The position numbers and the translations under genes are program-made. Positions 1,431 through 17,673 of a stretch of DNA of 18,724 nucleotides are shown here, piece after piece; position 1 is the first letter of the stretch; every line of letters starts with the position of its first letter. Under the pieces are notes generated by a model that saw nothing but the letters and a program-made list of their open reading frames with translations, was not told the DNA's origin and did no database searches. The DNA is from a virus (Duplodnaviria > Heunggongvirae > Uroviricota > Caudoviricetes). The stretch lies in IMG/VR virus record IMGVR_UViG_2734482772_000011, positions 1-18,724 of that record; one strand, given 5' to 3'.

Positions 1431-1453
1431 AAAAAAGCCCCGCATCGCGAGGC
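1431..1453 (-). terminator. intrinsic terminator downstream of Rz
   Basis: On - strand: GCCUCGC-GAU-GCGGGGC hairpin (7 bp, one G-U pair) followed by UUUUUU. Confidence 0.55.
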
Positions 1454-1485
1454 TCATTAAATGGACTTTGTGATTTGCAAAAAAA

Positions 1486-2703: not shown

Positions 2704-2820
2704 GTCTTACCCCCAATAAGGGGATTTGCTCTATTTAATTAGTAATAAGGTCGATTACTGATAGAACAAATCCAGGCTACTGTGTTTAGTAATCAGATTT
2801 GTTCGTGACCGATATGCACG

Positions 2821-2858
2821 GGCAAAACGGCAGGAGGTTGTTAGCGCGACCTCCTGCC
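2821..2858 (-). terminator. strong hairpin between tRNA-Thr and S (tR-prime-like terminator or processing structure)
   Basis: Perfect 10-bp stem GGCAGGAGGT/ACCTCCTGCC with 10-nt loop at 2829-2858; on - strand followed by GUUUUGCC (short U tract). Confidence 0.4.
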
Positions 2859-2945
2859 ACCCGCTTTCACGAAGATCATGTGTAGAAGGCCGCAGCGTAA
2901 CTATCACTGATGAATTCAGGATAGCCAGTGGCTACGGCTCAGTTA

Positions 2946-3021
2946 TGGTGCTGGTTAACGGACTTGAACCGCTACCCATTCGCTTACAAGGCGACTGCTC
3001 TACCATTGGAGCTAAACCAGC
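2946..3021 (-). tRNA. tRNA-Thr (anticodon UGU), CCA encoded
   Basis: Hand-folded: acceptor GCTGGTT/AACCAGC (7 perfect bp), D-stem GCTC/GAGC, anticodon loop CTTGTAA, T-arm AGCGG-TTCAAGT-CCGTT, discriminator A, 3' CCA; 76 nt. Confidence 0.7.
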
Positions 3022-3026
3022 ATGTT

Positions 3027-3101
3027 TGGCGGGACAGCGTGGGCTCGAACCACGATAAGAAGGTTAACAGCCTTCCGTAATGACCTTTATACGACTGACC
3101 C
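3027..3101 (-). tRNA. tRNA-Asn-like (anticodon GUU), CCA encoded; slightly atypical
   Basis: Hand-folded: T-arm CGTGG-TTCGAGC-CCACG, anticodon stem GAAGG/CCTTC with loop CTGTTAA (same loop as E. coli tRNA-Asn by recall), acceptor GGGTCAG/CTGTCCC with one T:T mismatch, short D-stem; 75 nt. Confidence 0.55.
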
Positions 3102-3192
3102 AAATAAAAAAAGCCACCGTTGCAACTTAAGAGTCACTAACGGCATCTTATGCCAATAGTGTTGCTCATTTGCTCAATGATGTCAACACGTT
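3102..3192 (-). promoter_or_regulatory. late promoter region (pR-prime-like) downstream of Q
   Basis: Consensus -35 hexamer TTGACA on - strand (plus coords 3186-3181) right after the Q stop; no convincing -10 resolved by eye; position matches lambda pR-prime/qut. Confidence 0.3.
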
Positions 3193-3681
3193 CTATGCTA
3201 CATGTTTAATTTTCTCTACACGTTTCCGATTTTTAAACGCACTATCCAGAACCGGGTAAATCATAAACAACGAGGCATTAAGGATTTCGTCAACTTCCCG
3301 TCGACAGGTTGCGAGCGACGGTTTTTGAATGCGCCCGCCGCCACGGCATAACATCTTGCGAGGTCTTGCGACGCGATGATAGTAAGATGCAATGGCGTGC
3401 TTGGAAGAGCCATGAGCGTAGTAGCTGAGGAGGATTCCAAAGGCTTTCTTGTCAATGTACATGACGGAATCGACGACCTGAGAAATCAACATTCCATCAT
3501 CATCATTACACATTGGCCTTGTCATAACTCTTCCCGGCTCTACGCTCTCCATGAACTTCGCTATTACGCTGCTCATGCGCTTTTCCAGACGACCTGAATA
3601 AACCCATGCGCCCCACAGTTCAAGCCAGCCATTCAGCCACTCATGCTGTTCTTTGGTGAGGTTTAGTTCTCTTATGCCCAC
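3193..3681 (-). CDS. Q: late-gene antiterminator Q
   Basis: Track ORF 162 aa; Q-family hallmarks (LELWGAWV near N-terminus, Cys/Asp-rich central segment, SYYAHG); located between nin region and S. Confidence 0.8.
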
Positions 3682-4343
3682 GCGCCTTCTCCCTGTACCT
3701 GAATCAATGTGAGATTTCCGCAGAACACTGCCCCAGTATCGATATACATCTGGTTGGCAAATTTGAGTGGTTTCACTGCTGGCGTATGACCAAAGATAAA
3801 CGTGTCCGCGCCTTTAATTTCTTTAACGATCCCGTCTTGTGAGTTGCTGATTCGTTCGCGGTTCCAGATTACCTGCTGATGATCAACTGGCTTTCCAAAT
3901 TCGTATTCGTCACAAGGATAATCGGCGTGGCAGATGACATATTTTTTACCTTTGCTCACCAGTTCGATGATTAACGGAAGTTCTTCTGCTTTATGGGCAA
4001 GAGCTTTAGCCAGAATTTCTTTGTCGTAATCGAGATTAAAGAACCAGACACCGCCATTAAGCAGCCAGTGATTGACGTTTCCACGCTCTGATAAGCCATC
4101 AATCATCATGTGCTCATGGTTTCCACGTACAGCTCTGAACCAGGGGAATGTGATTAATTCCAGGCATTCAACGTTCTCTGCACCACGATCAACCAAATCG
4201 CCCACCGAGATAAGCAGGTCTTTTTTGTTGTCGAATCCAATCGTATCCAGTTTGTTCATCAGGTTCGTGTAGCATCCGTGCAGATCGCCAACTACCCAAA
4301 TATTTCGGTATTTGCTGCCATCAATTCTTTCGTAGATATTCAT
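3672..4343 (-). CDS. ninI: Ser/Thr protein phosphatase (lambda NinI/Orf221 type)
   Basis: Track ORF 223 aa; metallophosphatase motifs GDLHG, GDLVDRG, GNHE; position after ninG as in lambda. Confidence 0.9.
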
Positions 4344-4951
4344 GCAGCCTCACTTCTGCTGTTTCGCAGTTTTTTAAGTTTCTGTTGATACTCCGCCTTG
4401 ATGGCCCTGCACTCTTCGACAGTCCAGCGATGGCGGTTATGGTTTGATTCGATTTCGTCTACTGCTTCCTGCCCGATGCGGTTAATCAGTTCGACGCGAT
4501 ACGGAACGAGATTTCCGCTTTTATGTTGGTTGCACACCACGCATTGCTTGTGAATATTGCGTTCATCAAATCGGAGTTGAGGCGCCGCAGCAGTTGTCCG
4601 GTAATGCCCGGCATCCCACTGAGCAGACGTGAGCGTTCCGCACGAGATACATGGTAAGTCGCGGTCTCTTTCTCTGATGAAGGCGTTTACGGCTTGTTGG
4701 GCTTGTTTAATCCAGTAACTGCGGGGCTTTAAGGCGAGTTTTCGAATCTTAAGTTTATCTTTCTGTTTCTGCTCCTCTCGTCGTCGTTTCTTCTCTGCTG
4801 CCTTTTCCGCTTTTTCGCGTTCTTTGCTTCGTCGTTCGAGTGCTATCTTGGTTCCACACTCTGGAGAGCACCACCACTGATTGGCGAATGCAGGGTGAAA
4901 CCATTCCCGACATTCATCGTTTTTACATCGTCTTCGCGCTGGTTTAGCCAT
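4340..4951 (-). CDS. ninG: NinG (Rap) recombination protein
   Basis: Track ORF 203 aa; Cys-rich N-terminus ([12 protein letters not shown]...WWCSPECG) and lysine/glutamate-rich stretch typical of lambda NinG by recall. Confidence 0.9.
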
Positions 4952-5004
4952 CGTCTTCTTCCTCGTGCATCGAGCTATTCGGATCGCTCATCAGTTCTGC
5001 ACAG

Positions 5005-5511
5005 TTATGGTCTGCCATGGTTTTCATGAAAACCCAGTTCTTTTTCTGCCCTCTTCCTTTCTGCAATAGCGTCAATGATGCTAGCAAATATTCCAAGATA
5101 TTTGGTGCGCCCATCTACGCATATATTCGCAATCCACTTGCATCTCTCTTTATTGAAATACACTCCAGTCACTCCTGACGAATTGGTTATTTTTCTCTTT
5201 TGGTTCTGTGCATTCTGTTGGTGTGTAACCAATCGAAGATTAGATAGCCTATTATCTGACCTTACTCCATTTATATGATCAATTTTATACCCTAATGGAA
5301 TCTCACCATTATTTATCATCCATATAACGTGGTGAGCATAAGTAATTACACCATCGATAGTTAACATCCTATAACCATCACTCCTAATGTAACCAGCAAC
5401 ACTGCCAACCTTAACATTATTAGAAGGAGACACTTTCCATCTAAGTACACCTAAAACATCATCATATGATAATTTATTTCTTAATTCGTCTATGTTGCTT
5501 ATATTTCTCAT
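5005..5511 (-). CDS. HNH homing endonuclease with AP2-like DNA-binding domain
   Basis: Track ORF 168 aa; HNH_3-like segment (YKIDHINGVRSDNRLSNLRLVTHQQN) followed by AP2-like segment (SGVTGVYFNKERCKWIANICVDGRTKYLGIF); AT-rich by eye relative to flanking nin genes. Confidence 0.8.
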   Translation of the reverse strand: MRNISNIDELRNKLSYDDVLGVLRWKVSPSNNVKVGSVAGYIRSDGYRMLTIDGVITYAHHVIWMINNGEIPLGYKIDHINGVRSDNRLSNLRLVTHQQNAQNQKRKITNSSGVTGVYFNKERCKWIANICVDGRTKYLGIFASIIDAIAERKRAEKELGFHENHGRP

Positions 5512-5653
5512 TATGTTCCACCATATTTAAGCATTCATATATACAACGCTCACACACATGAACTTCCAGCACATGCAGCTTCTGACCGCAGTTAGCGCAC
5601 GTTAAAGCTCGCTCGACACTTCCTTGTTCGTAACTTCGATTTTGGTCAATCAC
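5474..5653 (-). CDS. ninF: NinF-like ORF with altered C-terminus (remnant at the junction with the HNH insert)
   Basis: Hand-translated, not in track: GTG at 5653-5651 overlaps ninE stop (GTGA); reads [59 protein letters not shown]; core [24 protein letters not shown] matches lambda NinF by recall; 3' end overlaps the HNH start by 38 nt. Confidence 0.45.
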
Positions 5654-5832
5654 CTTGTTTTCCTCGCACGTTCTCTAAGCCACCGGATATCCCACAGGTG
5701 AGCCGTGTAGTTGAAGGTTTTTACGTCAGATTCTTTTGGGATTGGCTTGCGTTTATTTCTGGAGCGTTTCGTTGGAAGGTATTTGCAGTTTTCGCAGATT
5801 ATGTCGGTGATACTTCGTCGCTGTCTCGCCAC
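5650..5832 (-). CDS. ninE: NinE
   Basis: Track ORF 60 aa, [23 protein letters not shown]... matches lambda NinE by recall. Confidence 0.9.
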
Positions 5833-5972
5833 ACGTCCTCCTTTTCCTGCGGTAGTGGTAACACCCCTGTTGGTGTTCTTTCACATCGGAGACACCATCG
5901 ATTCCAGTAAGGTTGATTTGGTCGGAAGCGGTTATCTTCTTTGCATTCACCGCACCGATAACATCGCATCAT
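5799..5972 (-). CDS. ninD: NinD (small Cys-rich protein)
   Basis: Within track ORF 5799..6032; start taken at [11 protein letters not shown] (ATG 5972-5970) which overlaps ninB stop as ATGA; Cys-x2-Cys pairs. Confidence 0.7.
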
Positions 5973-6409
5973 GCTGCCCGATCTCCCCATCTCGCTTTCC
6001 ACTCCAGAGCCAGTCGCGCTTCGTCTGACCACTTAACGCCACGCTCTGTACCGAATGCCTGTATAAGCTCTAATAGCTCCGCAAATTCGCTTACACGCAT
6101 CCTGCTGGTTGACTGGCCTATTACCACAAAGCCATTCCCGGCAAGGTTAGGAACAACGTCCTGCTGCTTTAATGCTGCGGTAAACACACACTTCCAGCTT
6201 TCTGCATCCAGCCAGCGACCATGCCATTCAACCTGACGAGAGACGTCACCAAGGCAAGCCCAAAGCTTTCGGTTTTGGTCTAAGCTGCGGTTGCGTTCCT
6301 GAATGGTTACTACGATTGGTTTGGTTGGGTCTGGAAGAATTTGCTGTACTGCGTGAATAGCGTTTTGCTGATGTGCTGGAGATCGAATTTCAAAGGTTAG
6401 TTTTTTCAT
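5969..6409 (-). CDS. ninB: NinB (Orf-family recombination mediator)
   Basis: Track ORF; start taken at [21 protein letters not shown] (ATG 6409-6407) with SD GAGGGA 5 nt upstream; matches lambda NinB by recall. Confidence 0.9.
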
Positions 6410-6422
6410 GACTTCCCTCTCC

Positions 6423-6457
6423 CCCAAATAAAAAGGCCTGCGATTACCAGCAGGCCT
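6423..6457 (-). terminator. intrinsic terminator between helicase and ninB (tR2 analog)
   Basis: 8-bp perfect stem AGGCCTGC/GCAGGCCT at 6434-6457, followed on the - strand by UUUUUAUUU. Confidence 0.6.
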
Positions 6458-6485
6458 GTTATTAGCTCAGTGATGTAGATGGTCA

Positions 6486-7922
6486 TCAGAATCCTCCTTT
6501 CTTCTTGGACTGCGGTTCCTCGCGTTCACGTCGGCGCATTTCAGCAGACTGTTGGTCTGTGTCATAAATAGCGCCATTTGCCTGAATGCAATACACCGTG
6601 CCGGTATTGCCATGACGATTGAGACGAAGGATTAGTTCAGTTTCACCAGGTGGAACACTGTCATCAAAAGCGCCTTCACGATGGATCCCGACCCAATAAT
6701 CGCAATCCTGTTCAATCTGCCCTGTATCTCGTGAGTCACTTGGTAATGGGCGTTTATTGGTTCTGCTTTCCAGTGCGCGGTTAAGCTGCGTCAGAAGCAC
6801 AACAACGCAATCAAGCTCTTTGGCAAGGTTCTTCAGTCCTTTGGTGATCATGCCGTAAGCAAGGTCGTTGCGATCGGCCTTCTCAGCGGTCATTAGTGTC
6901 AGGTAATCGACCAGAATCATGCCAACACATCCTTTTTCTCGCTTGATTCGACGGCTTTCGCTGACGATTTGAGCCAGAGATAATCCCGGCGTGTCGTCGA
7001 TGTAAAGCAGGTCTATTTCACTCAAGCGATTGGCTGTTTCTATCGCCCTGTTGAAGTCACCATCGTAATCACCCTGATAGCCGTCATCGGCGTCATTTGT
7101 CGCCGGAAGGTAAAAAATATTCGGGTTAACACCAGACTTCTGCCCTACCAGTTTTTCCAGTATCTGATCACCTGGCATTTCAAGGCTGAACATCAATGCG
7201 GGCTTTTTCTCATGCACTGCGCAATTGATTGCCATCTGGCTGTATAGCGTCGTTTTCCCCATCTTAGGGCGAGCGCCAATGACAAACAGAGAGCCTTTCA
7301 CCAGACCTTTCGGTGACAGCATCCTGTCCAGCGATGGGATCCCTGTGCTCATTCCCCGTTGTTCGCCTGACGGGTCAAATCGCTTCTCAAGGTCGCTAAC
7401 CCAGTCTTCCATGACCTCACCAAATGAGCGAAGGCCGCGACGCGATCCGGTTTTTGCATGGTCTGTCAGTTGCGTGAAAATCGACTGAATAGCTTCGTAC
7501 TTCTGCGTTGCAGTCATTCCGTTGCGGGAATAGAGCAATTCCGTCGCTTCAGTCATGCGGTTGATGGCGTAGCGTTCCATTGCGGTTTCGCGAACCTGCA
7601 TTGCATAAGCAACGATGTTTGCTGCGCTTGGCGTGTTCTTTGCGATCTCAGCGATATAAGCAAAACCGCCAACAGACGCCGTTAACGATTTACGCTCCAG
7701 TTCATCGAAAAGCGTCAGGCCATCTACTGGCTTTTGCTCACGGTGCATTCTGGTTATTTCTTCGAAAATGATTTTGTGTGGCCGGCTGTAAAATGAATCA
7801 GGCTTCAGCATCGCCAGAACCTTCTGGACGCGCTCACTGCTGTCATCATCCAGAAGCAATCCACCAATCACCGCCTGCTCTGCCTCGATGCTATGGGGCG
7901 GCGCATAAAAATTATCGGTCAT
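6486..7922 (-). CDS. replicative DNA helicase (DnaB family, P22 gene 12 type)
   Basis: Track ORF; Walker A GARPKMGKT, DnaB-like N-terminal segment SIEAEQAVIGGLLLD; ATG at 7922-7920 with SD GAGGGTG preferred over track GTG at 7937. Confidence 0.9.
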   Translation of the reverse strand: MTDNFYAPPHSIEAEQAVIGGLLLDDDSSERVQKVLAMLKPDSFYSRPHKIIFEEITRMHREQKPVDGLTLFDELERKSLTASVGGFAYIAEIAKNTPSAANIVAYAMQVRETAMERYAINRMTEATELLYSRNGMTATQKYEAIQSIFTQLTDHAKTGSRRGLRSFGEVMEDWVSDLEKRFDPSGEQRGMSTGIPSLDRMLSPKGLVKGSLFVIGARPKMGKTTLYSQMAINCAVHEKKPALMFSLEMPGDQILEKLVGQKSGVNPNIFYLPATNDADDGYQGDYDGDFNRAIETANRLSEIDLLYIDDTPGLSLAQIVSESRRIKREKGCVGMILVDYLTLMTAEKADRNDLAYGMITKGLKNLAKELDCVVVLLTQLNRALESRTNKRPLPSDSRDTGQIEQDCDYWVGIHREGAFDDSVPPGETELILRLNRHGNTGTVYCIQANGAIYDTDQQSAEMRRREREEPQSKKKGGF

Positions 7923-8811
7923 CGTGTTCACCCTCACGAACTTTCAGGTAGGTATTATCGTTAAGCAGGAAATCAAATCCCTTTTTGTGCCAGACAGTTC
8001 CGCGTTGATGGTTTGGACGCTCTTCGAACATCCATCGGCAATTTTCGCCTACGTAGCTCAAATAATTTCTCCAGTCCTGCATCGTGAACCCATGCCCGTC
8101 AAGCTGGCGGGTTATCACTCCGGCTTTGCGCCAGAACGTTCGGATCTGGTTTTTACGCTTGTCATTCAGTGCGCGGATTCTTGGAGCTTCAGGAAGGATT
8201 TCGTGGTAAGCATCGACAACATCCTGACAGCTGACGGAAGGTTTTTTCTTGTCAGACTTTTTGTCTGCTGTGGCACTCTCTAATACGTCAGTATTAGAGA
8301 TAATATTATTATATTCTTTATCTGTGGTAATTTGCTGGTAATCTGCTGGTACAGCATTGCTTACAGGCATTGGTATTGCTGGCTTTGAGGTGGTAATTTG
8401 CTGGTAATCTGCTGGTACAAAATTTGACTGATAATCGTCATATTTCTCTACTGAGAAAACTGAGAATTTACCGTGTGAAACCCAGTCAATCATGCCGAGT
8501 TTTTTGAACTTTCTAAGCAGGTACTGAACGCGATCTGGTTTGAGTCCTGTTTCAAACGCCAGAGAGTTTCTACCGCCAAGTAGCTTCCCTCTGCCTACCA
8601 GAATTTCTCCTGCGTCAGTCATTACATACTCAGGCGTATGCTTTGCTTTGAGGATTAAGTGAACCCACAGATGCGCTGCTTCTGCATCCTTGTAAAACGG
8701 CACATCCATAATTTTACGGTGCAGCAAGGCATACCCCTTACCGCTGCTTTGATGCGGTTGTTGTAGCCTTCTGGCCTCTCTGGCTTCGGCTAGATTAGAT
8801 ATGTTACTCAT
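7912..8811 (-). CDS. replication initiation protein (O-like)
   Basis: Track ORF 299 aa directly upstream of the helicase, downstream of cII; contains tandem peptide repeat [10 protein letters not shown] encoded by the iteron array, as in lambda O. Confidence 0.75.
8324..8419. repeat. origin-like iteron array inside the O-like gene, flanked by an AT-rich tract (8281-8320)
   Basis: Exact 30-bp direct repeat GTGGTAATTTGCTGGTAATCTGCTGGTACA at 8324-8353 and 8390-8419; each holds two TGCTGGTA sub-repeats 11 bp apart. Confidence 0.6.
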
Positions 8812-8950
8812 GACCTTTCTCCTTCTGCATCAGCTTCACTTTTTCCAACTCAGCCCGGAATCGACCAGGCTGCTTGAAGCTGGACAGGAAGCGATCACGT
8901 AGTATGTGTTTGTGAATTTTGTCCTGGTAAGGACTGAGTTGTTTTGTCAT
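8804..8950 (-). CDS. small hypothetical protein (48 aa) between cII and O
   Basis: Hand-translated, not in track: [48 protein letters not shown]; SD AGGAG 5 nt upstream of ATG 8950-8948; stop overlaps O start. Confidence 0.4.
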
Positions 8951-8982
8951 AATTACTCCTGTGGATTGATCCAGTAATTCCC

Positions 8983-9279
8983 TCAGAATTGCATATCAAT
9001 TTGCTTAGAGTCCCCGGCGGCCACCGGGGATTTTTTCTTTGTGATTCCATCAAGCGCATACTTAAAAGCCCTACTAATCGGACTGATGTCTGATGCCATT
9101 CCGAAAGCACACAAGACTGAAGCAATAAATCTCCAGTCCGTTCTGCTTATCTTCGATTCATGACAGCCAATCATCTTTGCCAGACCGCGCTGAGTAAGCG
9201 TTGACAGGTTGATAAGTAAATCTGTTTCTGCGCGATCAACGTCGCGCTGTGATAGTTTGCTGTAACTTGTTCGTTCCAT
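8983..9279 (-). CDS. cII: CII-like transcriptional activator
   Basis: Track ORF 98 aa; HTH region and C-terminus [18 protein letters not shown] resembling lambda CII (KKRPAATERSEQIQMEF) by recall; position between cro and O. Confidence 0.75.
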
Positions 9280-9364
9280 TTCTTAAGATTTCCAATAGTG
9301 AATAGCTAGTTGAAAGGTATGCGTGGAAACGCATATGGCCTTAGTTGGTCAAATATCTTGGAAC

Positions 9365-9410
9365 TCGCTTTTCAGCGACGTAGGACGAATGTCCGTTGTT
9401 ACAAAGAGCG
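9365..9410 (-). promoter_or_regulatory. nutR (boxA + boxB)
   Basis: On - strand: boxA CGCUCUUUGUAACAA (9410-9396), then boxB hairpin UCGCU-GAAA-AGCGA (9378-9365); same architecture as the nutL candidate. Confidence 0.55.
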
Positions 9411-9420
9411 GCTCCGCTTA

Positions 9421-9636
9421 TTAAGCGGCTTTGTGTTCCGGCGGGAACACGTCATCAAGACTTACTTTTGCGCCTAACTTATTTAGGCACGCAACAAGAG
9501 CACGGCATGTTTTAAGGTCTGGGAAGCGACGACCAGATTCCCAATGTCCGATAGCTCCCTGTGTGCATCCAACTGCCTTAGCAAGTGTTGTTTGAGAGAT
9601 ATTCAGTGACTCTCGATATTTTCGTAGGTTGCTCAT
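9421..9636 (-). CDS. cro: Cro-like repressor (HTH_XRE)
   Basis: Track ORF; start at MSNLRKYRESL (ATG 9636-9634) with SD GGAGG 5 nt upstream; HTH ISQTTLAKAVGCTQGAIGHWESG; divergent from cI. Confidence 0.75.
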   Translation of the reverse strand: MSNLRKYRESLNISQTTLAKAVGCTQGAIGHWESGRRFPDLKTCRALVACLNKLGAKVSLDDVFPPEHKAA

Positions 9637-9752
9637 ATGCCCTCCATAGTAACCTCGAATAAAAAATACAATATGTACTTTCCAAATACAAGCAAAAATA
9701 CACATTGTGCATGGATGGTTCCAGTACAGAGCGTAATAATAAGGACATGAAA
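9637..9752. promoter_or_regulatory. OR region (divergent PR/PRM with operator sites)
   Basis: Intergenic between divergent cro and cI; near-palindromic sites TACAATATGTAC (9667-9678) and TACACATTGTGC (9699-9710); the first recurs near pL. Confidence 0.6.
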
Positions 9753-10406
9753 ATGAAATGGTATGAACTGGCTAGATCCAGAATGAAAGAGCTCGGCATA
9801 ACTCAAGAGAAGTTAGCCGAAGAGCTAGGTATGACGCAGGGTGGGATTGGACACTGGTTGCGCGGATCTCGTCATCCATCTCTTAGTGATATTGGTGTGG
9901 TGTTTAAATACCTTGGTATTGATAACATATCATTCAACCACGACGGGACATTTTCACCTGTTGGCGAATACTCATCGGCCCCAGTTAAAAAACAATATGA
10001 GTACCCTGTATTTTCTCATGTTCAGGCTGGGATGTTCTCTCCAGAACTCAGAACCTTTACCAAAGGCGATGCGGAGAGATTGGTAAGCACAACCAAAAAA
10101 GCCAGTGACTCTGCATTCTGGCTTGAGGTTGAAGGTAACTCAATGACCGCACCAACAGGTTCCAAACCCAGTTTTCCTGACGGGATGTTAATTCTGGTTG
10201 ACCCTGAGCAAGCTGTTGAGCCCGGCGATTTCTGCATAGCCAGACTTGGTGGTGATGAATTTACCTTCAAGAAACTGATCAGGGATAGCGGTCAGGTGTT
10301 TTTACAACCACTAAACCCACAGTACCCAATGATCCCATGCAATGAGAGTTGTTCCGTTGTGGGGAAAGTTATCGCCAGCCAGTGGCCTGAAGAGACGTTT
10401 GGGTGA
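9753..10406 (+). CDS. cI: CI repressor (HTH + LexA/S24-like autopeptidase)
   Basis: Track ORF; start at ATG 9753 (SD AAGGA 7 nt upstream); N-terminal HTH ([20 protein letters not shown]), C-terminal S24 motifs (GNSM ... FKKL). Confidence 0.9.
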
Positions 10407-10472
10407 TATATGTGAAATGCATATATTGATATAAATGCAGCAATATCAAATAGTTAAAAGGTTATATTTTTA

Positions 10473-10853
10473 ATGAATGATCTTGATAAGAAAAAGTACG
10501 ACCAAGTTATTGATTCTGTGAACTTCGCCCTTAGATCGTTGTCAGAGTTATTCGAAGCCCATGGAATGCATGGGATGTATGATCTAACGAATCCAAGCCT
10601 TGATGAGCTAAAATTAGTGTTTACAAGGATGAAAAACGGTGTTGACTCTATTGCTCAAAGCTTTGAGCACATGGTAGAGACAGCAAAGGATATGGATGCC
10701 GCAAGTGCAAGCATAAATGTTATGAACATCAAACAAGGATTGATGTATGCTGAATCACTATTGCTTGCTGTAGAGAAATTAGACTATGATAAATGTGTGG
10801 AAGCAAATACGCAGATAAAAACCCACGATCTTCCACCAACCCAATGGCCTTAA
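10473..10853 (+). CDS. hypothetical protein, AT-rich accessory gene in the rexA position
   Basis: Track ORF 126 aa co-oriented with and downstream of cI; A/T-rich codons by eye; acidic, no obvious TM segment; no family recognised. Confidence 0.6.
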   Translation: MNDLDKKKYDQVIDSVNFALRSLSELFEAHGMHGMYDLTNPSLDELKLVFTRMKNGVDSIAQSFEHMVETAKDMDAASASINVMNIKQGLMYAESLLLAVEKLDYDKCVEANTQIKTHDLPPTQWP

Positions 10854-10921
10854 TAGTAAATCAAGATTTCATATAGTCTATTTGAACTAGGCTAGTACCA
10901 TAAAATAAACCGAGGAAACGC

Positions 10922-11023
10922 AATGAAAACCATGTCTACTCTGCACAAAGATGCAATGACCCTGAGATCTCTCATTAACGAGATTCTGGCTCGCTCGTCA
11001 GCACACACCAAAAAAGCCGCATA
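10922..11023 (+). CDS. small peptide ORF (33 aa)
   Basis: Hand-translated: MKTMSTLHKDAMTLRSLINEILARSSAHTKKAA; SD GAGG 7 nt upstream; followed 11 nt later by an intrinsic terminator. Confidence 0.35.
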
Positions 11024-11034
11024 ATGCCTACATA

Positions 11035-11060
11035 ACCCGGCCTCAGCGCCGGGTTTTCTT
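11035..11060 (+). terminator. intrinsic terminator ending the cI operon (tImm analog)
   Basis: CCCGGC-CTCAGC-GCCGGG hairpin followed by TTTTCTTT. Confidence 0.7.
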
Positions 11061-11245
11061 TGCCTCACCCCCCACCTAAAGACACATAACCAAATGTATT
11101 TATTGAAAAATAAATAGATACAACTCACTAAACCACGCAATTCTGATCTCTCCTTACATCGCCGAGGCGATACACCCACGCTAAAAAACAACACTATTAA
11201 ATACAAAGTGTTATAAAAAATCACCCCATTTTAGAACAAATCGTA

Positions 11246-11274
11246 TTGACCCAATAAAGTACATATCGTACTAT
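11246..11274 (+). promoter_or_regulatory. pL-like promoter with overlapping operator
   Basis: -35 TTGACC (11246-11251), 17-nt spacer, -10 TACTAT (11269-11274); revcomp of 11259-11270 is TACGATATGTAC, 11/12 identical to OR site 9667-9678. Confidence 0.5.
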
Positions 11275-11319
11275 TTAACCGTCAGCAGGACGCTGGAAGC
11301 CAAACGGAACAGACTGGCA

Positions 11320-11366
11320 GGCTCTTTAAACAACGTCGAACTCTCGACTACGTGGCTGAAAAGCCA
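11320..11366 (+). promoter_or_regulatory. nutL (boxA + boxB)
   Basis: boxA GGCTCTTTAAACAA (11320-11333) then boxB hairpin TGGCT-GAAA-AGCCA (11353-11366), about 100 nt upstream of the N start. Confidence 0.6.
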
Positions 11367-11464
11367 GATCACCCAACCACATGAGCTGTGGGATGCAATG
11401 CCGAAGCAACCGTCTCAGGAGGAGCTTCGAGATTGCATCACCAAAGTTTATTCGGGAGGAATCT

Positions 11465-11787
11465 ATGTCCAGAAAAACAGAATTTAAAGGCACCTCAGCT
11501 TCTCGTCGTAGAGCTCGTCGCGCAAACCTGCAAAGTCAGGAGGCGATTAGCTCCGACAAGCTACACAGACCAACCCCCTCTCGAGTGGTCTTGCAATGCA
11601 AGCGCAAACCAGCAATGAGAGCAGAAGTAATAACACTGACAACGTTGACCAGAAAATATGAAGGCTCAACTTGTCTTCCAAATGTAGCTCTTTACGCGGC
11701 AGGCTACAGGAAATCAAAACAACTGACAGCAAGGTGACTTGTGTTGGTCGCCAGAAAATAAAATTAGGCAGCAAACCACTTATTTGA
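11465..11787 (+). pseudogene. N: N-like antiterminator interrupted by an apparent 1-bp deletion (or sequencing error)
   Basis: ATG 11465 (SD GGAGG) opens frame with arginine-rich motif TSASRRRARRANLQ and stops at TGA 11735-11737; the conserved N C-terminus VTCVGRQKIKLGSKPLI is in the -1 frame, ending at 11787; adding one A to the A4 run at 11716-11719 fuses them into a 107-aa protein. Confidence 0.6.
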
Positions 11788-11795
11788 GGTGATAT

Positions 11796-12245
11796 ATGGA
11801 AGAACAAGCAAACAAGATTCTCGTAGAACTATTGCAAAAAGCCAGTAATGGAATAGACGCGGCTGTTTCATTTAGCCAGGCACAGATTCCTGATGTTATC
11901 CATCAGTTGCTGCTATGGAATATGGTTGACAGTCTGATTAAAACATTAATAGCCATTCTAACAATCCCACTGGTTTTCTGGTTTATGAAGAAGCAGTGCC
12001 AAAGAGTTGAGATAGGTAAAATCGGTAATGAAGGATATTCATGGGAGAAGGGAAATCCCAAATACAGGCCGACAATGGTTTGGGATAGCAAAGGTGATAT
12101 TGATCTTCTTATCATGCCATTGGTTGGAGTTTTGACTCTGTGGGGGATTTTTATTATTGGTGCAGTAACCAATATGACTTGGTTAAAAATTTGGCTGGCC
12201 CCAAAGCTTTACCTTATCGAATATGCAGCATCATTGGTTAAGTAA
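11796..12245 (+). CDS. hypothetical two-TM membrane protein (sieB-position accessory gene)
   Basis: Track ORF 149 aa; SD GAGGTG upstream; two hydrophobic segments (LIKTLIAILTIPLVFWFM and LLIMPLVGVLTLWGIFIIGAV); AT-rich by eye; between N and tL1-like terminator. Confidence 0.6.
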   Translation: MEEQANKILVELLQKASNGIDAAVSFSQAQIPDVIHQLLLWNMVDSLIKTLIAILTIPLVFWFMKKQCQRVEIGKIGNEGYSWEKGNPKYRPTMVWDSKGDIDLLIMPLVGVLTLWGIFIIGAVTNMTWLKIWLAPKLYLIEYAASLVK

Positions 12246-12248
12246 TTT

Positions 12249-12274
12249 CAGGCCGCATAGTCGGCCTTTATTTT
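12249..12274 (+). terminator. intrinsic terminator (tL1 analog)
   Basis: AGGCCG-CATAGT-CGGCCT hairpin followed by TTATTTTT. Confidence 0.7.
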
Positions 12275-12394
12275 TGGCATAAACAACAGAATAAACACTG
12301 CACTGTGTATTCATTCCAACGAGTGAATACACGGAGCAATGTCGCTCGTAACTAAACAGGAGCCGACTTGTTCTGATTATTGGAAATCTTCTTT

Positions 12395-12418
12395 GCCCTC
12401 CAGTGTGAGGGCTTTTTT
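12395..12418 (+). terminator. intrinsic terminator (tL2 analog)
   Basis: GCCCTC-CAGTGT-GAGGGC hairpin followed by TTTTTT. Confidence 0.75.
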
Positions 12419-12484
12419 ATATGCATACCAATAACGCTTCACTCGAGGCGTTTTCGTTATGCAATCAAATATAAGGAGTTACCC

Positions 12485-12619
12485 ATGATGCACTTTCAGC
12501 TCGCGGGTAGCGGCGTCATGTCCGCTTTCTACCCGCACGAATCTGAATTATCACGCCGAGTTAAACAATTAATCAGAGCAGCAAAGAAACAACTGGAGGC
12601 GTTATGCGCAATGAAATAG
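12485..12619 (+). CDS. cIII: CIII-like protein (FtsH inhibitor)
   Basis: In-frame part of track ORF 12380..12619 downstream of the terminator; ATG 12485 with SD AAGGAG 6 nt upstream; AGSGVMSAFYPHESELSRRVKQLIRAAKKQL resembles the lambda CIII helix region by recall. Confidence 0.55.
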   Translation: MMHFQLAGSGVMSAFYPHESELSRRVKQLIRAAKKQLEALCAMK

Positions 12620-12756
12620 CCATTAATCACCAGATGCTTCGTGCTGCACAGAACAAAGCAGTAATAGCCCGATTTATTGGTGATTCAAAAATGTGGCTTG
12701 AAGCAAATAAAGCGATGAAATCAGCTATCAACCTTCCGTGGTATCGCAGGAAATGA
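12604..12756 (+). CDS. Kil-like small protein
   Basis: Hand-translated 50 aa: MRNEIAINHQMLRAAQNKAVIARFIGDSKMWLEANKAMKSAINLPWYRRK; start overlaps cIII end; FIGD.KM motif and position recall lambda Kil (low certainty). Confidence 0.4.
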   Translation: MRNEIAINHQMLRAAQNKAVIARFIGDSKMWLEANKAMKSAINLPWYRRK

Positions 12757-12837
12757 GTTTTACAGATAACTGGTCAGACGAAGAATTCATTCGTCAGATG
12801 AAAGAAATGCTCAATCAGCACAAAGAACAGGAGAAAG

Positions 12838-13149
12838 ATGATGATTCTGACTCTGAATGATAAGCGTGAAATATCGCAAATAATCGCAAGTTTTACTGAT
12901 GAAGATTACGAACGAATCAACAGTGAAGTTGATCGCCTCTGCAAACGTTGCGACCCAATAAGCGAAATGCTTCGCTCATATAAACCAGATGAACACACTA
13001 AGGACGCTATCGACTGGCTGGAAGATGATGACTGTAACTATCAGGAAAAAGCCGCTGAATGGTTCTGGGATGCAATAACCGAAAGAGTTAAGGCTGAATA
13101 TGCCTTCGCAATATTCAAACGCAGACACATTTTTGGAGAAGCTGCATGA
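12838..13149 (+). CDS. hypothetical protein upstream of recombinase
   Basis: Track ORF 103 aa, acidic, ends 4 bp into the RecT start; no family recognised. Confidence 0.5.
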   Translation: MMILTLNDKREISQIIASFTDEDYERINSEVDRLCKRCDPISEMLRSYKPDEHTKDAIDWLEDDDCNYQEKAAEWFWDAITERVKAEYAFAIFKRRHIFGEAA

Positions 13150-14057
13150 GCAATATCGTTGAATTCGTTAAACAGCAGGAGCAGTTATTCTGCGGAGCAT
13201 TGACTGAACAGACGGTGACATGGGCTAAGGAAAGCCAGTTTGCAATTCAGTATTTCCAGAAAAACGATTACCTGGCTAAAACAGCACTGGCAAATCCAAC
13301 CAGCGCACAGAACGCCATCATCAATGTTGCGGCGATCGGCATCACCTTAAACCCGGCCAGCAAACTGGCTTATCTGGTTCCGCGCGACGGCATGGTGTGC
13401 CTTGATATCAGTTATATGGGATTGCTCCATATTGCAATGGAGTCTGGTGTTATCTCATGGGGTCAGGCAAAACTTGTTCATGCTAACGATACCTATGAGT
13501 CAAACGGGCTTGATAAAGCACCAACCCATAAATACAACGCCTTCGGTGATCGTGGTGATATCGTTGGCGTTTACTGCACAGTTAAGACGCCAGCAGGTGA
13601 TTATCTAACGGAAGAGATGAGTCTGGCTGAAATTGAGGCTGTAAGGAAAACAAGCAAGGCGGCCTTCAGCGATAAAGGACCATGGGTAAATCACTGGAAT
13701 GAGATGGCGCGAAAGACGGTCGTAAAGCGTGCAAGCAAGTATTGGCCTAAGGCATCACGTCTTGATAGTGCTATTCACGTACTAAACGAAGAAGAAGGTG
13801 TGTGGACTGAACCAGTTATGCCGCACAAATCAGAGGAAGATATCCGCGAAGATGAACGGAAACGCCAGCAGGAAATAACGGATAAAGCACAACTTCTTTG
13901 TGATGAAATGGCTCAGGCAGAAAACATGGATGATTTGAAGCGATATTTTGCAGAAGCATATCGCCTGACATCTGGAATGAAATTGCAGCAGAACGTACAA
14001 GCCATTTACGCAGAATGCAAAGCGAAACTGGAGGTTGCCAGTGAGCAAACTGTATGA
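13146..14057 (+). CDS. recT: RecT-family single-strand annealing recombinase
   Basis: Track ORF 303 aa; segment KGPWVNHWNEMARKTVVKRASKYWP resembles the RecT core (GPWVTHWEEMAKKTAIRR) by recall. Confidence 0.8.
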   Translation: MSNIVEFVKQQEQLFCGALTEQTVTWAKESQFAIQYFQKNDYLAKTALANPTSAQNAIINVAAIGITLNPASKLAYLVPRDGMVCLDISYMGLLHIAMESGVISWGQAKLVHANDTYESNGLDKAPTHKYNAFGDRGDIVGVYCTVKTPAGDYLTEEMSLAEIEAVRKTSKAAFSDKGPWVNHWNEMARKTVVKRASKYWPKASRLDSAIHVLNEEEGVWTEPVMPHKSEEDIREDERKRQQEITDKAQLLCDEMAQAENMDDLKRYFAEAYRLTSGMKLQQNVQAIYAECKAKLEVASEQTV

Positions 14058-14523
14058 AATTGCCAATGAATACGCAAAGCTGATGGATTCAGATTTAGAA
14101 CCAGAGATGATTGCTGACACAATAGAAGGCATGGAAGGAGAATTTACCGATAAAATAGAGCAACTTCTTGCCATTATTAAAAATGAATCTGGTTATGCTG
14201 AATGCCTCAAGGAAGAGGCAAAGTCACTAAATGAACGAGCCGCAGTAATTCAAAATAAGATTGACAACATTATGGCGTATATAGCGTCATCGCTTGAAAT
14301 GGTTGGCAAGAAAAAGATTCGAGCAGGTATTCACCAGGTAACAATCCGCAAACCGTCAGAAACTGTAGAAATCATCGACTCAAGCGCCATTCCTCCTGAA
14401 TACGTTGAGTTTGAAACGACAATTAAAGCCGACAAGTTGGCAATCAAACACCAACTAAAAGCAGGAATAAATATCCCCGGCGCTCAACTCAAAGTTGGGA
14501 AACCTTCACTTCTTATCAAATAA
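14041..14523 (+). CDS. Gp157-family protein (Siphovirus Gp157-like)
   Basis: Track ORF; GTG 14041 with SD GGAGG 6 nt upstream preferred over track TTG 14035; family call from recalled pattern and recombinase adjacency, not verified. Confidence 0.5.
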   Translation: MSKLYEIANEYAKLMDSDLEPEMIADTIEGMEGEFTDKIEQLLAIIKNESGYAECLKEEAKSLNERAAVIQNKIDNIMAYIASSLEMVGKKKIRAGIHQVTIRKPSETVEIIDSSAIPPEYVEFETTIKADKLAIKHQLKAGINIPGAQLKVGKPSLLIK

Positions 14524-14534
14524 CGGTATCGCCT

Positions 14535-14849
14535 ATGAAAAAGACTCCATGGGAGAAATGGGAAGTCGATTTCTTACGCGAAGTAGCGGCGACAATGCCA
14601 GTTGAAGTTATCGCTGAAAAACTGGAAAGGACTGAAAAAGCAGTAATGGCGAAAGCAACAAGGATTGGCGCTGACATTGTTAGCCGACTTCGTGGAAGAC
14701 GATGGACAAGAGCCGAAGTATCACTTTTCGGTAAGTTCTCCGCAGAAGAAATAGCAATTGCAACCTGCCGCTCAATTTATTCAGTAAGAGCTATGCGATA
14801 CAAGCTAAAAAAACTCGATGAAGAAAGAGCAGGCATACGAATAAATTAA
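14535..14849 (+). CDS. hypothetical protein with internal tandem helical repeat
   Basis: Track ORF 104 aa; two ~35-aa repeats each starting with W and acidic residues (WEKWEVDFLREVAATMP... and WTRAEVSLFGKFSAEEIA...). Confidence 0.5.
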   Translation: MKKTPWEKWEVDFLREVAATMPVEVIAEKLERTEKAVMAKATRIGADIVSRLRGRRWTRAEVSLFGKFSAEEIAIATCRSIYSVRAMRYKLKKLDEERAGIRIN

Positions 14850-14865
14850 CATGGAGTAATTAACA

Positions 14866-15147
14866 ATGAAGCTAAACATAGACCTAGGCAAATATGTTAT
14901 TACCGGAACCAAACACGATCTGATTCTTAGCGAAAGAGGAATTCTCAAAGAAGGCGAGAATGCAGGGAAAGAAACACTAAGCCGTATCGGTTATTACAGC
15001 AAGTTTGAGCATCTGGTTAAAGAATTATGCAACCGTGAAATCCTGTTATCTCAGGCGCAGACGCTACAGGATATTCAGCAACATATCGAGACTTTAGGTG
15101 TGTCACTTAGCATGGCTGTTGACCAGTTCGTGGAGAGTAAATCATGA
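14866..15147 (+). CDS. hypothetical protein
   Basis: Track ORF 93 aa in a co-directional operon; no family recognised. Confidence 0.45.
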
Positions 15148-15311
15148 GAGGACTTGCATACAATCCCGGCATTCTTCCGGCAGAAATGATTATTCGTCAA
15201 CGCGTAAAGCCAATGCCATCGAGAGAGGAATTGCTTAAGAGAAAGAGTTTCGGTTCTGTTAATGACAACAAATATCTGAATGCGATGTGGCGTAAAGGAG
15301 GCAACCAGTGA
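15144..15311 (+). CDS. small hypothetical protein (55 aa)
   Basis: Hand-translated: ATG 15144 overlaps upstream stop (ATGA); [55 protein letters not shown]. Confidence 0.4.
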
Positions 15312-15562
15312 GTAATTCAGCACGACTACAGCTTGGTTTTTCACCGCTATCAAAAACTATCATGCTGGCAAAAATGCGCGATGTTGAAGGTGGACGTATG
15401 CGCGTTGGCAATGATCCAGGTCGTGATGTTACCAATGAGGCCGCTCAATTGGTGTGGCGACTGGTCATGGCTGAAGGTGGTGAGATAGTGTGGGAGCTGG
15501 ATGATGGTTCTCGCATGGTGTTGAAGGCAGAAAAGCAGGAGGCAACCAGTGAGCAAGATTGA
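15308..15562 (+). CDS. hypothetical protein
   Basis: Track ORF 84 aa; GTG start overlapping upstream stop (GTGA) with AGGAGG 6 nt upstream. Confidence 0.45.
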
Positions 15563-16211
15563 CTATCAGGCACTGCGTGAGTTAGCAAAACAGGCAACAC
15601 AGGGTGAATGGGTCGCATTTATTTCGCCGGGCAAATACGGCACGTACGCCGTACACACACCAGGTGATAATCATCACGGAGATATTGTCGACTGGCCAGG
15701 ATTCGACGAACAGAAAAACGCAGAGAACAACGCTCGTTATATCGCAGCTTTCAACCCTGAAGTAGTGCAGGCGCTGCTGGATGAACGGGAAAGAAACCAG
15801 CAATACATCAAATCACGCGACCAGGAGAACGAGGAAATTGCGCTAACGGTAGGGAAGCTGCGTGTTGAGCTGGAAGCCGCAGAGAAGCGCAACGCAAAAT
15901 TACAAAGCGAGAATGCATACATCCGCAACCGGTTCAAAGAACTGGACCTGTTAATCGGGAAAAACATTCTGGTCATGCAGGCTGCCATTATAGAATGGCA
16001 GGCAACTGGCGACGCTAAGAGCGGACTGGCATGGATTTATAACACACTGTTTGACCCAGGCGAATTGCCGGACGAATCTGAGAAAGATGCTCAGGCCTAC
16101 TTTAATCGCAAATATGCACCGATTGACGAAAAGCTTATGGAGCTTCACGAGTGGTTTTGGGAACAAAGTAAAGCCGAGCGCGCCGCTGGCATTCGCATCA
16201 AAGGAGAGTGA
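15549..16211 (+). CDS. Ead/Ea22-like protein
   Basis: Track ORF 220 aa; N-terminus [22 protein letters not shown] typical of the Ead/Ea22-like family by recall; coiled-coil-like middle. Confidence 0.7.
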   Translation: MSKIDYQALRELAKQATQGEWVAFISPGKYGTYAVHTPGDNHHGDIVDWPGFDEQKNAENNARYIAAFNPEVVQALLDERERNQQYIKSRDQENEEIALTVGKLRVELEAAEKRNAKLQSENAYIRNRFKELDLLIGKNILVMQAAIIEWQATGDAKSGLAWIYNTLFDPGELPDESEKDAQAYFNRKYAPIDEKLMELHEWFWEQSKAERAAGIRIKGE

Positions 16212-16212
16212 T

Positions 16213-16734
16213 ATGAGCACTATCACTAAAGAACGTATCGAATTGTTCATTAAAAATCCGCTTGAAAACGGACTTACCCGTGGCGAACAAATGGAACTGG
16301 CACGGATTGCACTGGCATCGCTGGAAGCCGAACCTGTAAGCCAAACTTACAAGTTTCCAGTTAATACACCTTGCCAGGATGCGCCAGCCCATATCTGGCT
16401 GCAAACGGCTGGAGTATGGCCAGAAGATGGCGAGTTAAGCGAATTAACGTGGTGCAGCCACAATCAGCACCATGATGACACGCTATTTGTTCGAGCTGAC
16501 CTTGTGAATGGCAACTCTCCGGTAACTCCGGATGGTTGGATAAGCTGTAGTGAGCGAATGCCGGAGAAATACGATTTCGATATCTGGGTATTCTCTCCAT
16601 CCAGAGGCGTTCTTGACGGGCTACAGTGGGATGGCTCGATGTTTACTGATGATGAATATCAGTTCGTTATTCATGACGCCACGCATTGGATGAGAAAAGC
16701 ATATCCAGCAGCACCGCAGCAGGATGGTGAATGA
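16213..16734 (+). CDS. DUF551-like protein
   Basis: In frame with track ORF 16051..16734; start taken at ATG 16213 (SD AAGGAG 6 nt upstream); C-terminal GWISCSERMPEKYDFDIWVF resembles DUF551 by recall. Confidence 0.6.
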   Translation: MSTITKERIELFIKNPLENGLTRGEQMELARIALASLEAEPVSQTYKFPVNTPCQDAPAHIWLQTAGVWPEDGELSELTWCSHNQHHDDTLFVRADLVNGNSPVTPDGWISCSERMPEKYDFDIWVFSPSRGVLDGLQWDGSMFTDDEYQFVIHDATHWMRKAYPAAPQQDGE

Positions 16735-16884
16735 TGCCGCCAGTTAAAGTTGTGATTATCACTTTGGTGATGATAGTGATTGCGAGAATCATGTCTGGTG
16801 AAGTTTGGTGGATATGGTAATGGCTAAGGCAGCAGCAGAGCGCAACTAACAATCCTCGCACTCGCGGGGATTTCTTTTATCTGA

Positions 16885-16910
16885 ACTCGCTACGGCGAGT
16901 TTTATTTTAT
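16885..16910 (+). terminator. intrinsic terminator
   Basis: ACTCGC-TACG-GCGAGT hairpin followed by TTTTATTTTA. Confidence 0.5.
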
Positions 16911-16921
16911 GGAGATGACAA

Positions 16922-17089
16922 ATGCACTTCCGAGTCACAGGTGAATGGAATGGAGAACCATTCAACAGAGTTATCGAAGCCGAGAACATCAGCGACTGCT
17001 ATGACCACTGGATGCTGTGGGCGCAGATAGCACATGCAGACGTAACCAACATTCGAATTGAAGAACTGAAAGAACACCAAGCCGCCTGA
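16922..17089 (+). CDS. small hypothetical protein (55 aa)
   Basis: Hand-translated: MHFRVTGEWNGEPFNRVIEAENISDCYDHWMLWAQIAHADVTNIRIEELKEHQAA; SD GGAG 7 nt upstream; flanked by two terminators. Confidence 0.45.
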   Translation: MHFRVTGEWNGEPFNRVIEAENISDCYDHWMLWAQIAHADVTNIRIEELKEHQAA

Positions 17090-17102
17090 TGGCGGTTTTT
17101 TG
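17080..17102 (+). terminator. intrinsic terminator
   Basis: CCGCC-TGAT-GGCGG hairpin followed by TTTTTTGG. Confidence 0.6.
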
Positions 17103-17112
17103 GGGGTAGTAG

Positions 17113-17328
17113 ATGGCTGCAATTCACATTATATCAATAACATGCAATGTAATTCAGATAGTTGCTTGCATTATCTTTGTTTTCTCAATCATTCGCTCCC
17201 GACGATATTCTCCAGCAATTAACCGACATCCTGCACAGGTTGAAGCAGTCAGGATGGCTATAGAGTTACGAAATGAGATGAATAAGGCATTAATGGAGAT
17301 GGAGAAACCATTCACTGACAAACATTAA
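17113..17328 (+). CDS. hypothetical small protein with hydrophobic N-terminus
   Basis: Track ORF 71 aa; hydrophobic IHIISITCNVIQIVACIIFVFSII segment then charged tail. Confidence 0.4.
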   Translation: MAAIHIISITCNVIQIVACIIFVFSIIRSRRYSPAINRHPAQVEAVRMAIELRNEMNKALMEMEKPFTDKH

Positions 17329-17454
17329 GAGTGGAAATAAAGAAATCACACCGCCTCACACTCGGTGAGGCCTGTTCATTGCTCAATGATATCCAGACCT
17401 ACCATCGCCGCATCAATGCGGCTTTTTCTTGCGTGTAATTGCGGAGACTTTGCG

Positions 17455-17673
17455 ATGTACTTGACACTTCAGGAGTGGAACGCTCGCCAGCGACGCCCAA
17501 GAAGCCTTGAAACAGTTCGTCGATGGGTGCGCGAATGCAGGATATTCCCTCCTCCGGTTAAGGATGGAAGAGAGTATCTGTTCCACGAATCAGCGGTAAA
17601 GGTTGACTTAAATCGACCAGTAACAGGTAGCCTTTTGAAGAGGATCAGAAATGGGAAGAAGGCGAAGTCATGA
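17455..17673 (+). CDS. xis: excisionase Xis
   Basis: Within track ORF 17365..17673; from ATG 17455 reads MYLTLQEWNARQRRPRSLETVRRWVRECRIFPPPVKDGREYLF..., matching lambda Xis by recall; 3' end overlaps int start. Confidence 0.9.
   Translation: MYLTLQEWNARQRRPRSLETVRRWVRECRIFPPPVKDGREYLFHESAVKVDLNRPVTGSLLKRIRNGKKAKS

Follow-up and report, generated by a model that had tools for sequence, protein, structure and literature searches.

Probable nutL and nutR sites with GAAA-tetraloop boxB hairpins in a lambdoid prophage carrying a VT2-Sakai-type immunity module

Two boxA-boxB sites in the early-regulation region

We analyzed a stretch of viral DNA of 18,724 nucleotides (positions 1 to 18,724 of IMG/VR record IMGVR_UViG_2734482772_000011; the whole stretch is referred to below as the window) with regard to two candidate N-utilization (nut) sites, nutL and nutR, at which the antiterminator N of a lambdoid phage would act. 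The part of the window in question holds the immunity and early-regulation genes of a lambdoid phage, reversed in orientation and arranged in the order P, O, cII, nutR, cro, pR/oR, cI, cargo genes, pL/oL, nutL, N (Table 1). There is one site per early transcript, nutL downstream of pL (about 47 nt past its -10 hexamer) and nutR downstream of pR and cro, and both are upstream of terminators.

A search of the whole window with the composite pattern GCTCTTT-N(18-34)-GCTGAAAAGC, which joins the boxA core to boxB, returned exactly two matches, one at nutL (+ strand, 11321-11364) and one at nutR (- strand, 9409-9367), while 200 dinucleotide-preserving shuffles gave none. The 10-mer GCTGAAAAGC itself is present in two copies, both in the nut sites and none elsewhere in the window. 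Generic hairpins with a 5-bp stem and a GNRA loop turned out not to be rare (5 observed against 1.3 expected), and the non-randomness therefore belongs to the composite boxA-plus-boxB site. These counts agree with the original prediction, which had described a boxA followed by a 5-bp-stem GAAA boxB once on each early transcript and had given the positions of both sites correctly. The spacing of 17 to 19 nt that it had proposed between boxA and boxB also held, the distance from AACAA to boxB being 19 nt in nutL and 17 nt in nutR.

In both sites the modules follow in the order boxA, spacer hairpin, UACG linker (TACG in the DNA), and boxB. The boxA consensus is GCUCUUUA-like, and the sites contain GCTCTTTAA (nutL) and GCTCTTTGT (nutR); the first nine bases of the nutL boxA are those of the rrn boxA core, GCUCUUUAA. 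The spacers contain a dyad of the kind found in H-19B/933W-type sites, GTCGA/TCGAC in nutL and GGAC/GTCC in nutR, and each boxB combines a short G+C-rich stem with a U-A closing pair and a purine-rich loop of the GNRA type. The two sites had been described as identical in architecture, which is true of the layout they share but not of their sequences, since they differ in the boxA tail, in the sequence of the spacer hairpin, and in one boxB base pair (G:C versus C:G).

RNA folding, which had been suggested as a check of the prediction, gave the expected hairpins. On its own, each boxB folded into a stem of 5 bp capped by a loop of 4 nt, at -6.3 kcal/mol (z score of -2.8) for nutL and -5.7 kcal/mol (z score of -4.6) for nutR, and the spacer-plus-boxB segments of both RNAs formed two hairpins each, as did that of nutL inside the whole 199-nt leader. 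Among related tetraloop sites, the boxB stem showed compensatory changes, its outer pair being U:A, C:G, or A:U and its second pair G:C or C:G, and these changes support the stem. Pairing was found in 100% of the cells in the true register and in 11 to 51% in slid registers; a 4-bp stem with a hexaloop and a shifted pentaloop register were rejected on the grounds that pairing falls to at most 51% when the register is slid. Rfam holds no nut or boxB family; a scan of the window at the gathering threshold gave two tRNAs only, and a permissive scan of positions 9200-11600 gave chance matches only.

A gene for an N protein with an N-terminal arginine-rich motif lies just downstream of nutL. It is an uninterrupted open reading frame (ORF) of 90 codons preceded by a GGAGG Shine-Dalgarno sequence, and its product matched Pfam PF25694 (N_peptide) over the whole length (E value of 1e-31) and phrog_271 at 1e-24. 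In length and position it equals the annotated N of phage VT2-Sakai. Fourteen IMG/VR contigs encode an N with 100% identity to it; among GenBank phage records, 60 score 95 to 99%, the best of them at 98.9% identity, and in Escherichia coli genomes NCBI PGAP annotates the homologue as intact, under the name "transcriptional antitermination N peptide." In an alignment with the N of 933W (127 aa, 41% identity), the window N was shorter by about 37 linker residues; its arginine-rich motif and EAISS..LHRPT segment were retained, as was CLPNVALYAAGYRKSKQLTAR at the C terminus. Mutation of R3, S11, R15, or R18 in the H-19B N abolishes nut-dependent antitermination (PMC3526286), and all four residues have counterparts in the window N. 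Searched by sequence against the PDB, N gave no match. The window N is a short natural allele without a lesion.

Table 1. Coordinates in the window of the nut modules, gene N, and the surrounding early-region features
Feature	Positions	Strand	Evidence or remark
nutL boxA, GCTCTTTAAACAA	11321..11333	+	sequence pattern; GCTCTTT core kept in 82/82 loci with a 90-aa N
nutL spacer hairpin, GTCGA-ACTC-TCGAC	11335..11348	+	RNA folds, alone and in leader
nutL boxB, 5-bp stem TGGCT/AGCCA, GAAA tetraloop, U-A closing pair	11353..11366	+	folding, comparison, covariation
nutR boxA, GCTCTTTGTAACAA, 11 nt past the cro stop codon	9396..9409	-	sequence pattern; core conserved
nutR spacer hairpin, GGAC-ATTC-GTCC	9383..9394	-	same sequence in nutR of 933W, mEp234, and epsilon34
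nutR boxB, 5-bp stem TCGCT/AGCGA, GAAA tetraloop, U-A closing pair	9365..9378	-	folding, covariation; homologue annotated in AP000422
N, 90-aa antiterminator, arginine-rich motif SRRRARRANLQ	11465..11737	+	intact ORF, Pfam, homology
pL, TTGACC, 17 nt, TACTAT	11246..11274	+	promoter scan; homologous to annotated VT2-Sakai pL
Operator-like AAGTACATATCGTA, overlapping pL	11257-11270	+	
pR	9664..9692	-	fixed offset from VT2-Sakai annotation and shared operator sequence
Operator-like AAGTACATATTGTA, cI-cro interval at pR	9667-9680	-	
tR1-region hairpin, UAUGCGU-UUCC-ACGCAUA (hairpin at 9335-9318)	9314..9342	-	z score of -3.3, no U-tract; nutR-cII interval
Strong intrinsic terminator directly past P, tR2-like position	6434..6457	-	terminator search
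Three terminator-like hairpins with T-tracts	12250-12267, 12395-12412, 12433-12452	+	downstream of N and a 149-aa ORF
P gene, DnaB-like	6486-7937	-	
O	7912-8811	-	
DUF2740 ORF	8804-8950	-	
cII	8983-9279	-	Pfam Phage_CII, 2e-31
Cro-type helix-turn-helix (HTH) gene	9421-9636	-	Pfam
cI, S24/HTH repressor	9753-10406	+	Pfam
126-aa ORF (phrog_16322, unknown function, no Pfam match)	10473-10853	+	between cI and pL
Small 33-codon ORF	10923-11024	+	
Terminator	11034-11055	+	

Relatives of the sites and the pairing of N motif with boxB loop

The closest known counterpart of the module is that of VT2-Sakai (GenBank accession no. AP000422), in which the homologous stretches are annotated as "putative N-utilization" sites, rightward and leftward; the nut sites are thus already known and recorded in public annotation. 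The nut regions of the window were 97 to 98% identical to AP000422. In the aligned region, nutR did not differ from boxA through boxB, and nutL differed by a single extra A in the spacer-hairpin loop. The VT2-Sakai N, also of 90 aa, is 98.9% identical to that of the window, and the pL and pR operators match as well. Phages Stx2 II, Stx1-converting phage, YYZ-2008, 1717, and 2851 belong to the same class, and positions 8900-11800 of the window aligned with VT2-Sakai, Stx2 II, Stx1-converting phage, and the PA series at 96.5% identity over 78% of the length. Between cI and pL, VT2-Sakai has the H0093 gene, whereas the window has the 126-aa ORF of phrog_16322. Overall, the window is a mosaic of a VT2-Sakai-type immunity/N/nut module and a remainder that is not Stx-phage-like: the best matches of the flanking replication, recombination, and integrase regions (including 17651-18724) were HK106, HK022, Sf6, and mEp235, with at most 50% cover per phage record.

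Salmonella phage epsilon34 (NC_011976, gene 43) also has a GAAA boxB at both sites and the same layout of spacer hairpin, UACG linker, and boxB; its nutR boxB, TCGCT-GAAA-AGCGA, is that of the window, and its N motif, RRRERRAALQ, is of the same type as the RRRARRANLQ of the window. It differs in having a 120-aa N with a 933W-like body, a nutL boxB whose outer pair is C:G or A:U and not U:A, and no recognizable boxA at either site (locus L167, 1020-1090 on the - strand and 3315-3400 on the + strand), while the window class has a consensus boxA at both. A "novel BoxB specificity" of the epsilon34 N was already proposed in the paper describing that genome (PMC2629481).

With the H-19B/933W/HK97 type, the window shares the two-hairpin architecture of spacer dyad and boxB, and at nutR the spacer and the boxB stem are the same. 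In 933W and mEp234, the spacer hairpin of nutR and the UACG linker after it are those of the window, and the C terminus and the LHRPT segment of the N proteins are homologous. The boxB loop of this type is the pentaloop GACAA, one base longer than GAAA, its arginine-rich motif is RRRERLKAKALANG, its N has 127 aa and is 41% identical to that of the window, and its nutL has no boxA. The combination of a GACAA pentaloop with the 127-aa N motif RSRRRERLKAKALANG was absent from the window. The nutR of H-19B forms two hairpins, and its spacer is protected by NusA and Rho (PMC3526286).

The nut sites of lambda and P22, with which the original prediction had suggested a comparison, share the 5-bp stem and the GNRA fold with those of the window, but both phages have a pentaloop and a spacer without a hairpin. 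In lambda, boxA, spacer, and boxB follow in the same order, the sites likewise come after pL and cro, boxB has a GNRA fold on a stem of 5 bp closed by a U-A pair, and the N motif, RRRERRAEKQ, resembles RRRARRANLQ. The fourth base of the lambda loop (GAAGA or GAAAA), however, is extruded, the spacer measures 8 to 9 nt and lacks a hairpin (23 to 24 nt with a hairpin in the window), the lambda boxA is CGCTCTTA, and Trp18 of the lambda N has no counterpart in the window N. The complex of P22 nutL boxB with the gene 24 N peptide (PDB 1A4T) has a stem of the GCGCU/AGCGC type and a GNRA-like fold, and GACAA without its looped-out C is exactly GAAA; the differences are the pentaloop, the arginine-rich motif TRRHERRRKLAIER, and a short, unstructured spacer. 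In the boxB loops of lambda (GNRNA) and P22 (GACAA), one base loops out of what is otherwise a GNRA fold, and the U-A closing pair of boxB is required by lambda N (PMC12027372; PMC12550061). Unlike the lambda GNRNA and the P22/933W GACAA pentaloops, the boxB loop of the window is a true tetraloop with no extruded base.

The loop type was compared across the classes of N. In the 82 loci with a 90-aa N, the GCTCTTT core, both stems, and the GAAA loop were invariant, and variation was confined to positions immediately 5' of boxA and immediately 3' of boxB, the nutL spacer loop, and, rarely, the boxA tail. The nutL spacer loop read CTC, ACTC, ACAC, GCAC, or ATC in related loci, with an invariant stem. 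The 90-aa N of the window and VT2-Sakai type (SRRRARRANLQ) was accompanied by GAAA at 81 of 81 nutL and 76 of 76 nutR sites, and the 127-aa N of the 933W type (RRRERLKAKALANG) by GACAA at 81 of 81 nutL and 75 of 75 nutR sites. The 40 loci with a 120-aa N of the epsilon34 type (RRRERRAALQ) had GAAA at every nutL and nutR site found. Six further loci in the epsilon34 scan had a 127-aa N with RRRERLKAKALANG, a nonstandard hairpin at nutL, and GACAA at nutR. Thus, an N with the motif RRR(A/E)RRAxLQ went with a GAAA tetraloop at every nut site found in 121 of 121 loci (81 plus 40), and no locus had mixed loop types. A relative with 84% N identity had GCAA in nutL, which is still a GNRA loop.

The co-segregation of motif and loop, which is comparative evidence for matched specificity, was without exception in three N lineages. 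The nutR sites of the 90-aa and 933W classes share a common backbone and differ by a single C in the loop. Since the epsilon34 N combines a 933W-like 120-aa body with a window-like motif and occurs with GAAA, the loop follows the motif and not the rest of N; on this point the epsilon34 group is decisive. A scan of genome contigs (596 Gb) with CTACGNNGCTGNAAAGC was uninformative on taxonomic spread, the pattern being too degenerate and the matches listed being chance ones in unrelated taxa.

A departure from the standard sites was seen in the group of SPN9CC (L168, about 3385-3400), L193, L196, L197, L199, L200, and L202, which has the 933W-type N motif. Its nutR has GACAA closed by a U.G pair (TCGCT-GACAA-GGCGA), and at the nutL position there is a hairpin, GCTC-CGTCAAC-GAGC, instead of a GACAA boxB.

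Assignment of the sites and its alternatives

The two sites are very probably the leftward and rightward nut sites of a lambdoid prophage with a VT2-Sakai-type immunity/N module. The assignment to nutL and nutR, already made in the original prediction, is upheld by their position, the annotated homologues, the cognate N, the stem covariation, and the co-segregation of motif and loop. On the model of lambda, P22, and H-19B, the arginine-rich N-terminal helix of N (the lambda-like SRRRARRANLQ) would bind the GNRA tetraloop and the 5' face of the boxB stem in the nascent RNA, NusA would join by contact with ISSDKLHRPT in N and with the spacer, NusB/S10 would probably bind boxA, and the C-terminal segment CLPNVALYAAGYRKSKQLTAR would hold the complex on RNA polymerase. 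The polymerase modified in this way would read through tR1, the terminator past P, and the terminators left of N. The terminator past P would then be a downstream target of the nutR-modified polymerase, and the three hairpins at 12250-12452 would be downstream targets of the nutL-modified one; since terminators lie downstream on both arms, both early transcripts need antitermination.

Several observations weigh against this assignment or its details. The minimum-energy folds of the isolated 61-nt nut RNAs (11315-11375 on the + strand and 9355-9415 on the - strand; -14.9 and -20.4 kcal/mol, respectively) pair boxA (GCUCUUU) with the boxB loop and 3' arm (AAAAGC) around the spacer hairpin and leave boxB unformed. 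The role of boxA is uncertain, as the epsilon34 class has the same type of motif and the tetraloop but no boxA, and Neely and Friedman reportedly found in 2000 that the H-19B N acts independently of boxA and NusB. The loci that show the co-segregation are mostly 97 to 100% identical within each class, and the association therefore amounts to about three independent lineages, not 200 events. Finally, the searchable literature yielded no experiment on this N/nut class, so that function rests on the comparative evidence only.

We did not adopt the fold pairing boxA with the 3' arm of boxB: variants within the 90-aa-N class gave no sign of covariation in its flanking pairs, and it disappears from the minimum-energy structure once the nutL leader is folded in full. 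The pairing could nevertheless be a competing structure; one of a similar kind has been reported for the H-19B NUT RNA.

A functional alternative is that the sites work in the mode of H-19B, with only spacer and boxB mattering for N plus NusA, boxA dispensable, and NusB/S10 not required. We consider this rather unlikely. In its favor, the window nutR has the spacer hairpin and linker of 933W and mEp234, the nutL of 933W has no boxA, and the epsilon34 class, with the same N motif and GAAA boxB, has boxA at neither site; in H-19B, N with NusA/NusG protected the spacer and boxB of nutR, not boxA (PMC3526286). What speaks against a dispensable boxA is that its GCTCTTT core is invariant at both sites in all 82 loci while the bases just 5' of it vary, which suggests selection on boxA in the 90-aa-N class. 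The match of the nutL boxA to the rrn-type core points the same way. Much more remote is the idea that the hairpins are not N targets at all but arose by chance or serve only as Rho-loading or terminator elements or RNase processing sites. The nutR region does overlap the rut site of tR1 in lambda and H-19B (PMC3526286), and generic 5-bp GNRA hairpins do occur elsewhere in the window, yet the composite motif has a chance expectation of zero, the same module is found on both early transcripts, and nutL is not adjacent to a terminator of the tR1 type. A role in Rho action or termination only would also not predict that the loop type tracks the arginine-rich motif of N in three lineages. These points make such a role highly improbable.

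The least probable reading, to which we give next to no credence, is that of the original prediction, in which intact relic nut sites stand beside a frameshifted, nonfunctional N whose lesion was thought to be recent or artefactual. It could draw on the ORF list, which has overlapping ORFs in two frames (11381-11737 and 11388-11618), and on the 37 residues by which the window N falls short of the 933W N. It is already refuted by the intact and widely conserved reading frame with its full-length N_peptide match; upward of 80 contigs and numerous phage genomes carry an identical or nearly identical N, the VT2-Sakai N has the same length, and PGAP calls the homologue intact in E. coli genomes. 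There is consequently no lesion to be explained as recent or artefactual.

The assignment as nut sites of a VT2-Sakai-type module being the preferred one, its main yield for the window is a correct annotation in which nothing is missing from the early antitermination system (N, nutL, and nutR), and early regulation in the prophage has therefore probably kept its function and not decayed. The one mildly new point is that a lambda-like arginine-rich motif is systematically paired with a boxB bearing a true GNRA tetraloop, which is incremental in a mature field. Whether RRR(A/E)RRAxLQ together with a GNRA-tetraloop boxB defines a distinct, orthogonal N-nut specificity class, comprising the 90-aa N of the VT2-Sakai type and the 120-aa N of the epsilon34 type, we put forward only tentatively, at slightly less than an even chance. 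If it does, the N proteins of this class would recognize a true tetraloop and would not cross-act with 933W/H-19B nut sites, despite a difference of a single nucleotide in the nutR loop, and the contact thought to be made by the extruded loop base in the lambda complex would have to be absent or replaced. The window pair and the well-studied 933W/H-19B pair, one nutR loop nucleotide apart, offer a natural minimal system for studying the discrimination between a GNRA tetraloop and a GNRA-like pentaloop by arginine-rich peptides, and for asking if lambdoid prophages that share a host, as the Stx phages do in O157 strains, are kept from cross-activating one another.

Neighboring features

The operator-like 14-mers at pR and pL are near-identical. 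A simple promoter scan did not detect pR. The homologue of the tR1 region in VT2-Sakai is annotated as a putative rho-dependent terminator. A 6-bp hairpin, CCGCTT-AAT-AAGCGG (9414-9428), spans the cro stop codon 4 nt upstream of the nutR boxA; it folds weakly (z score of -1.0) and appeared terminator-like in the scan of the + strand.

Between nutL and the Shine-Dalgarno sequence of N, positions 11381-11400 pair with 11431-11451 (+ strand) in a long stem-loop, and the 199-nt N leader as a whole folded at -68.8 kcal/mol (z score of -4.1). The stem is conserved in the window, STEC1589, 933W, mEp234, epsilon34, and SPN9CC, with five compensatory pairs. It resembles the RNase III-sensitive structure in the N leader of lambda that controls N translation.

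The 126-aa ORF occupies the position of lambda rexAB and replaces the H0093 gene of VT2-Sakai. Of 5,426 complete E. coli genomes, only 12 match the cargo combination of this ORF, the 33-codon ORF, and the terminator with a query cover of 80% or more, and the 126-aa ORF could be a lysogen-expressed moron or an exclusion gene. Beyond the replication genes, on the strand of rightward pR sense, there are two tRNA genes (2949-3021 and 3030-3101, - strand; Rfam tRNA, 61.5 and 53 bits), which recall the tRNA genes of Stx-type phages.

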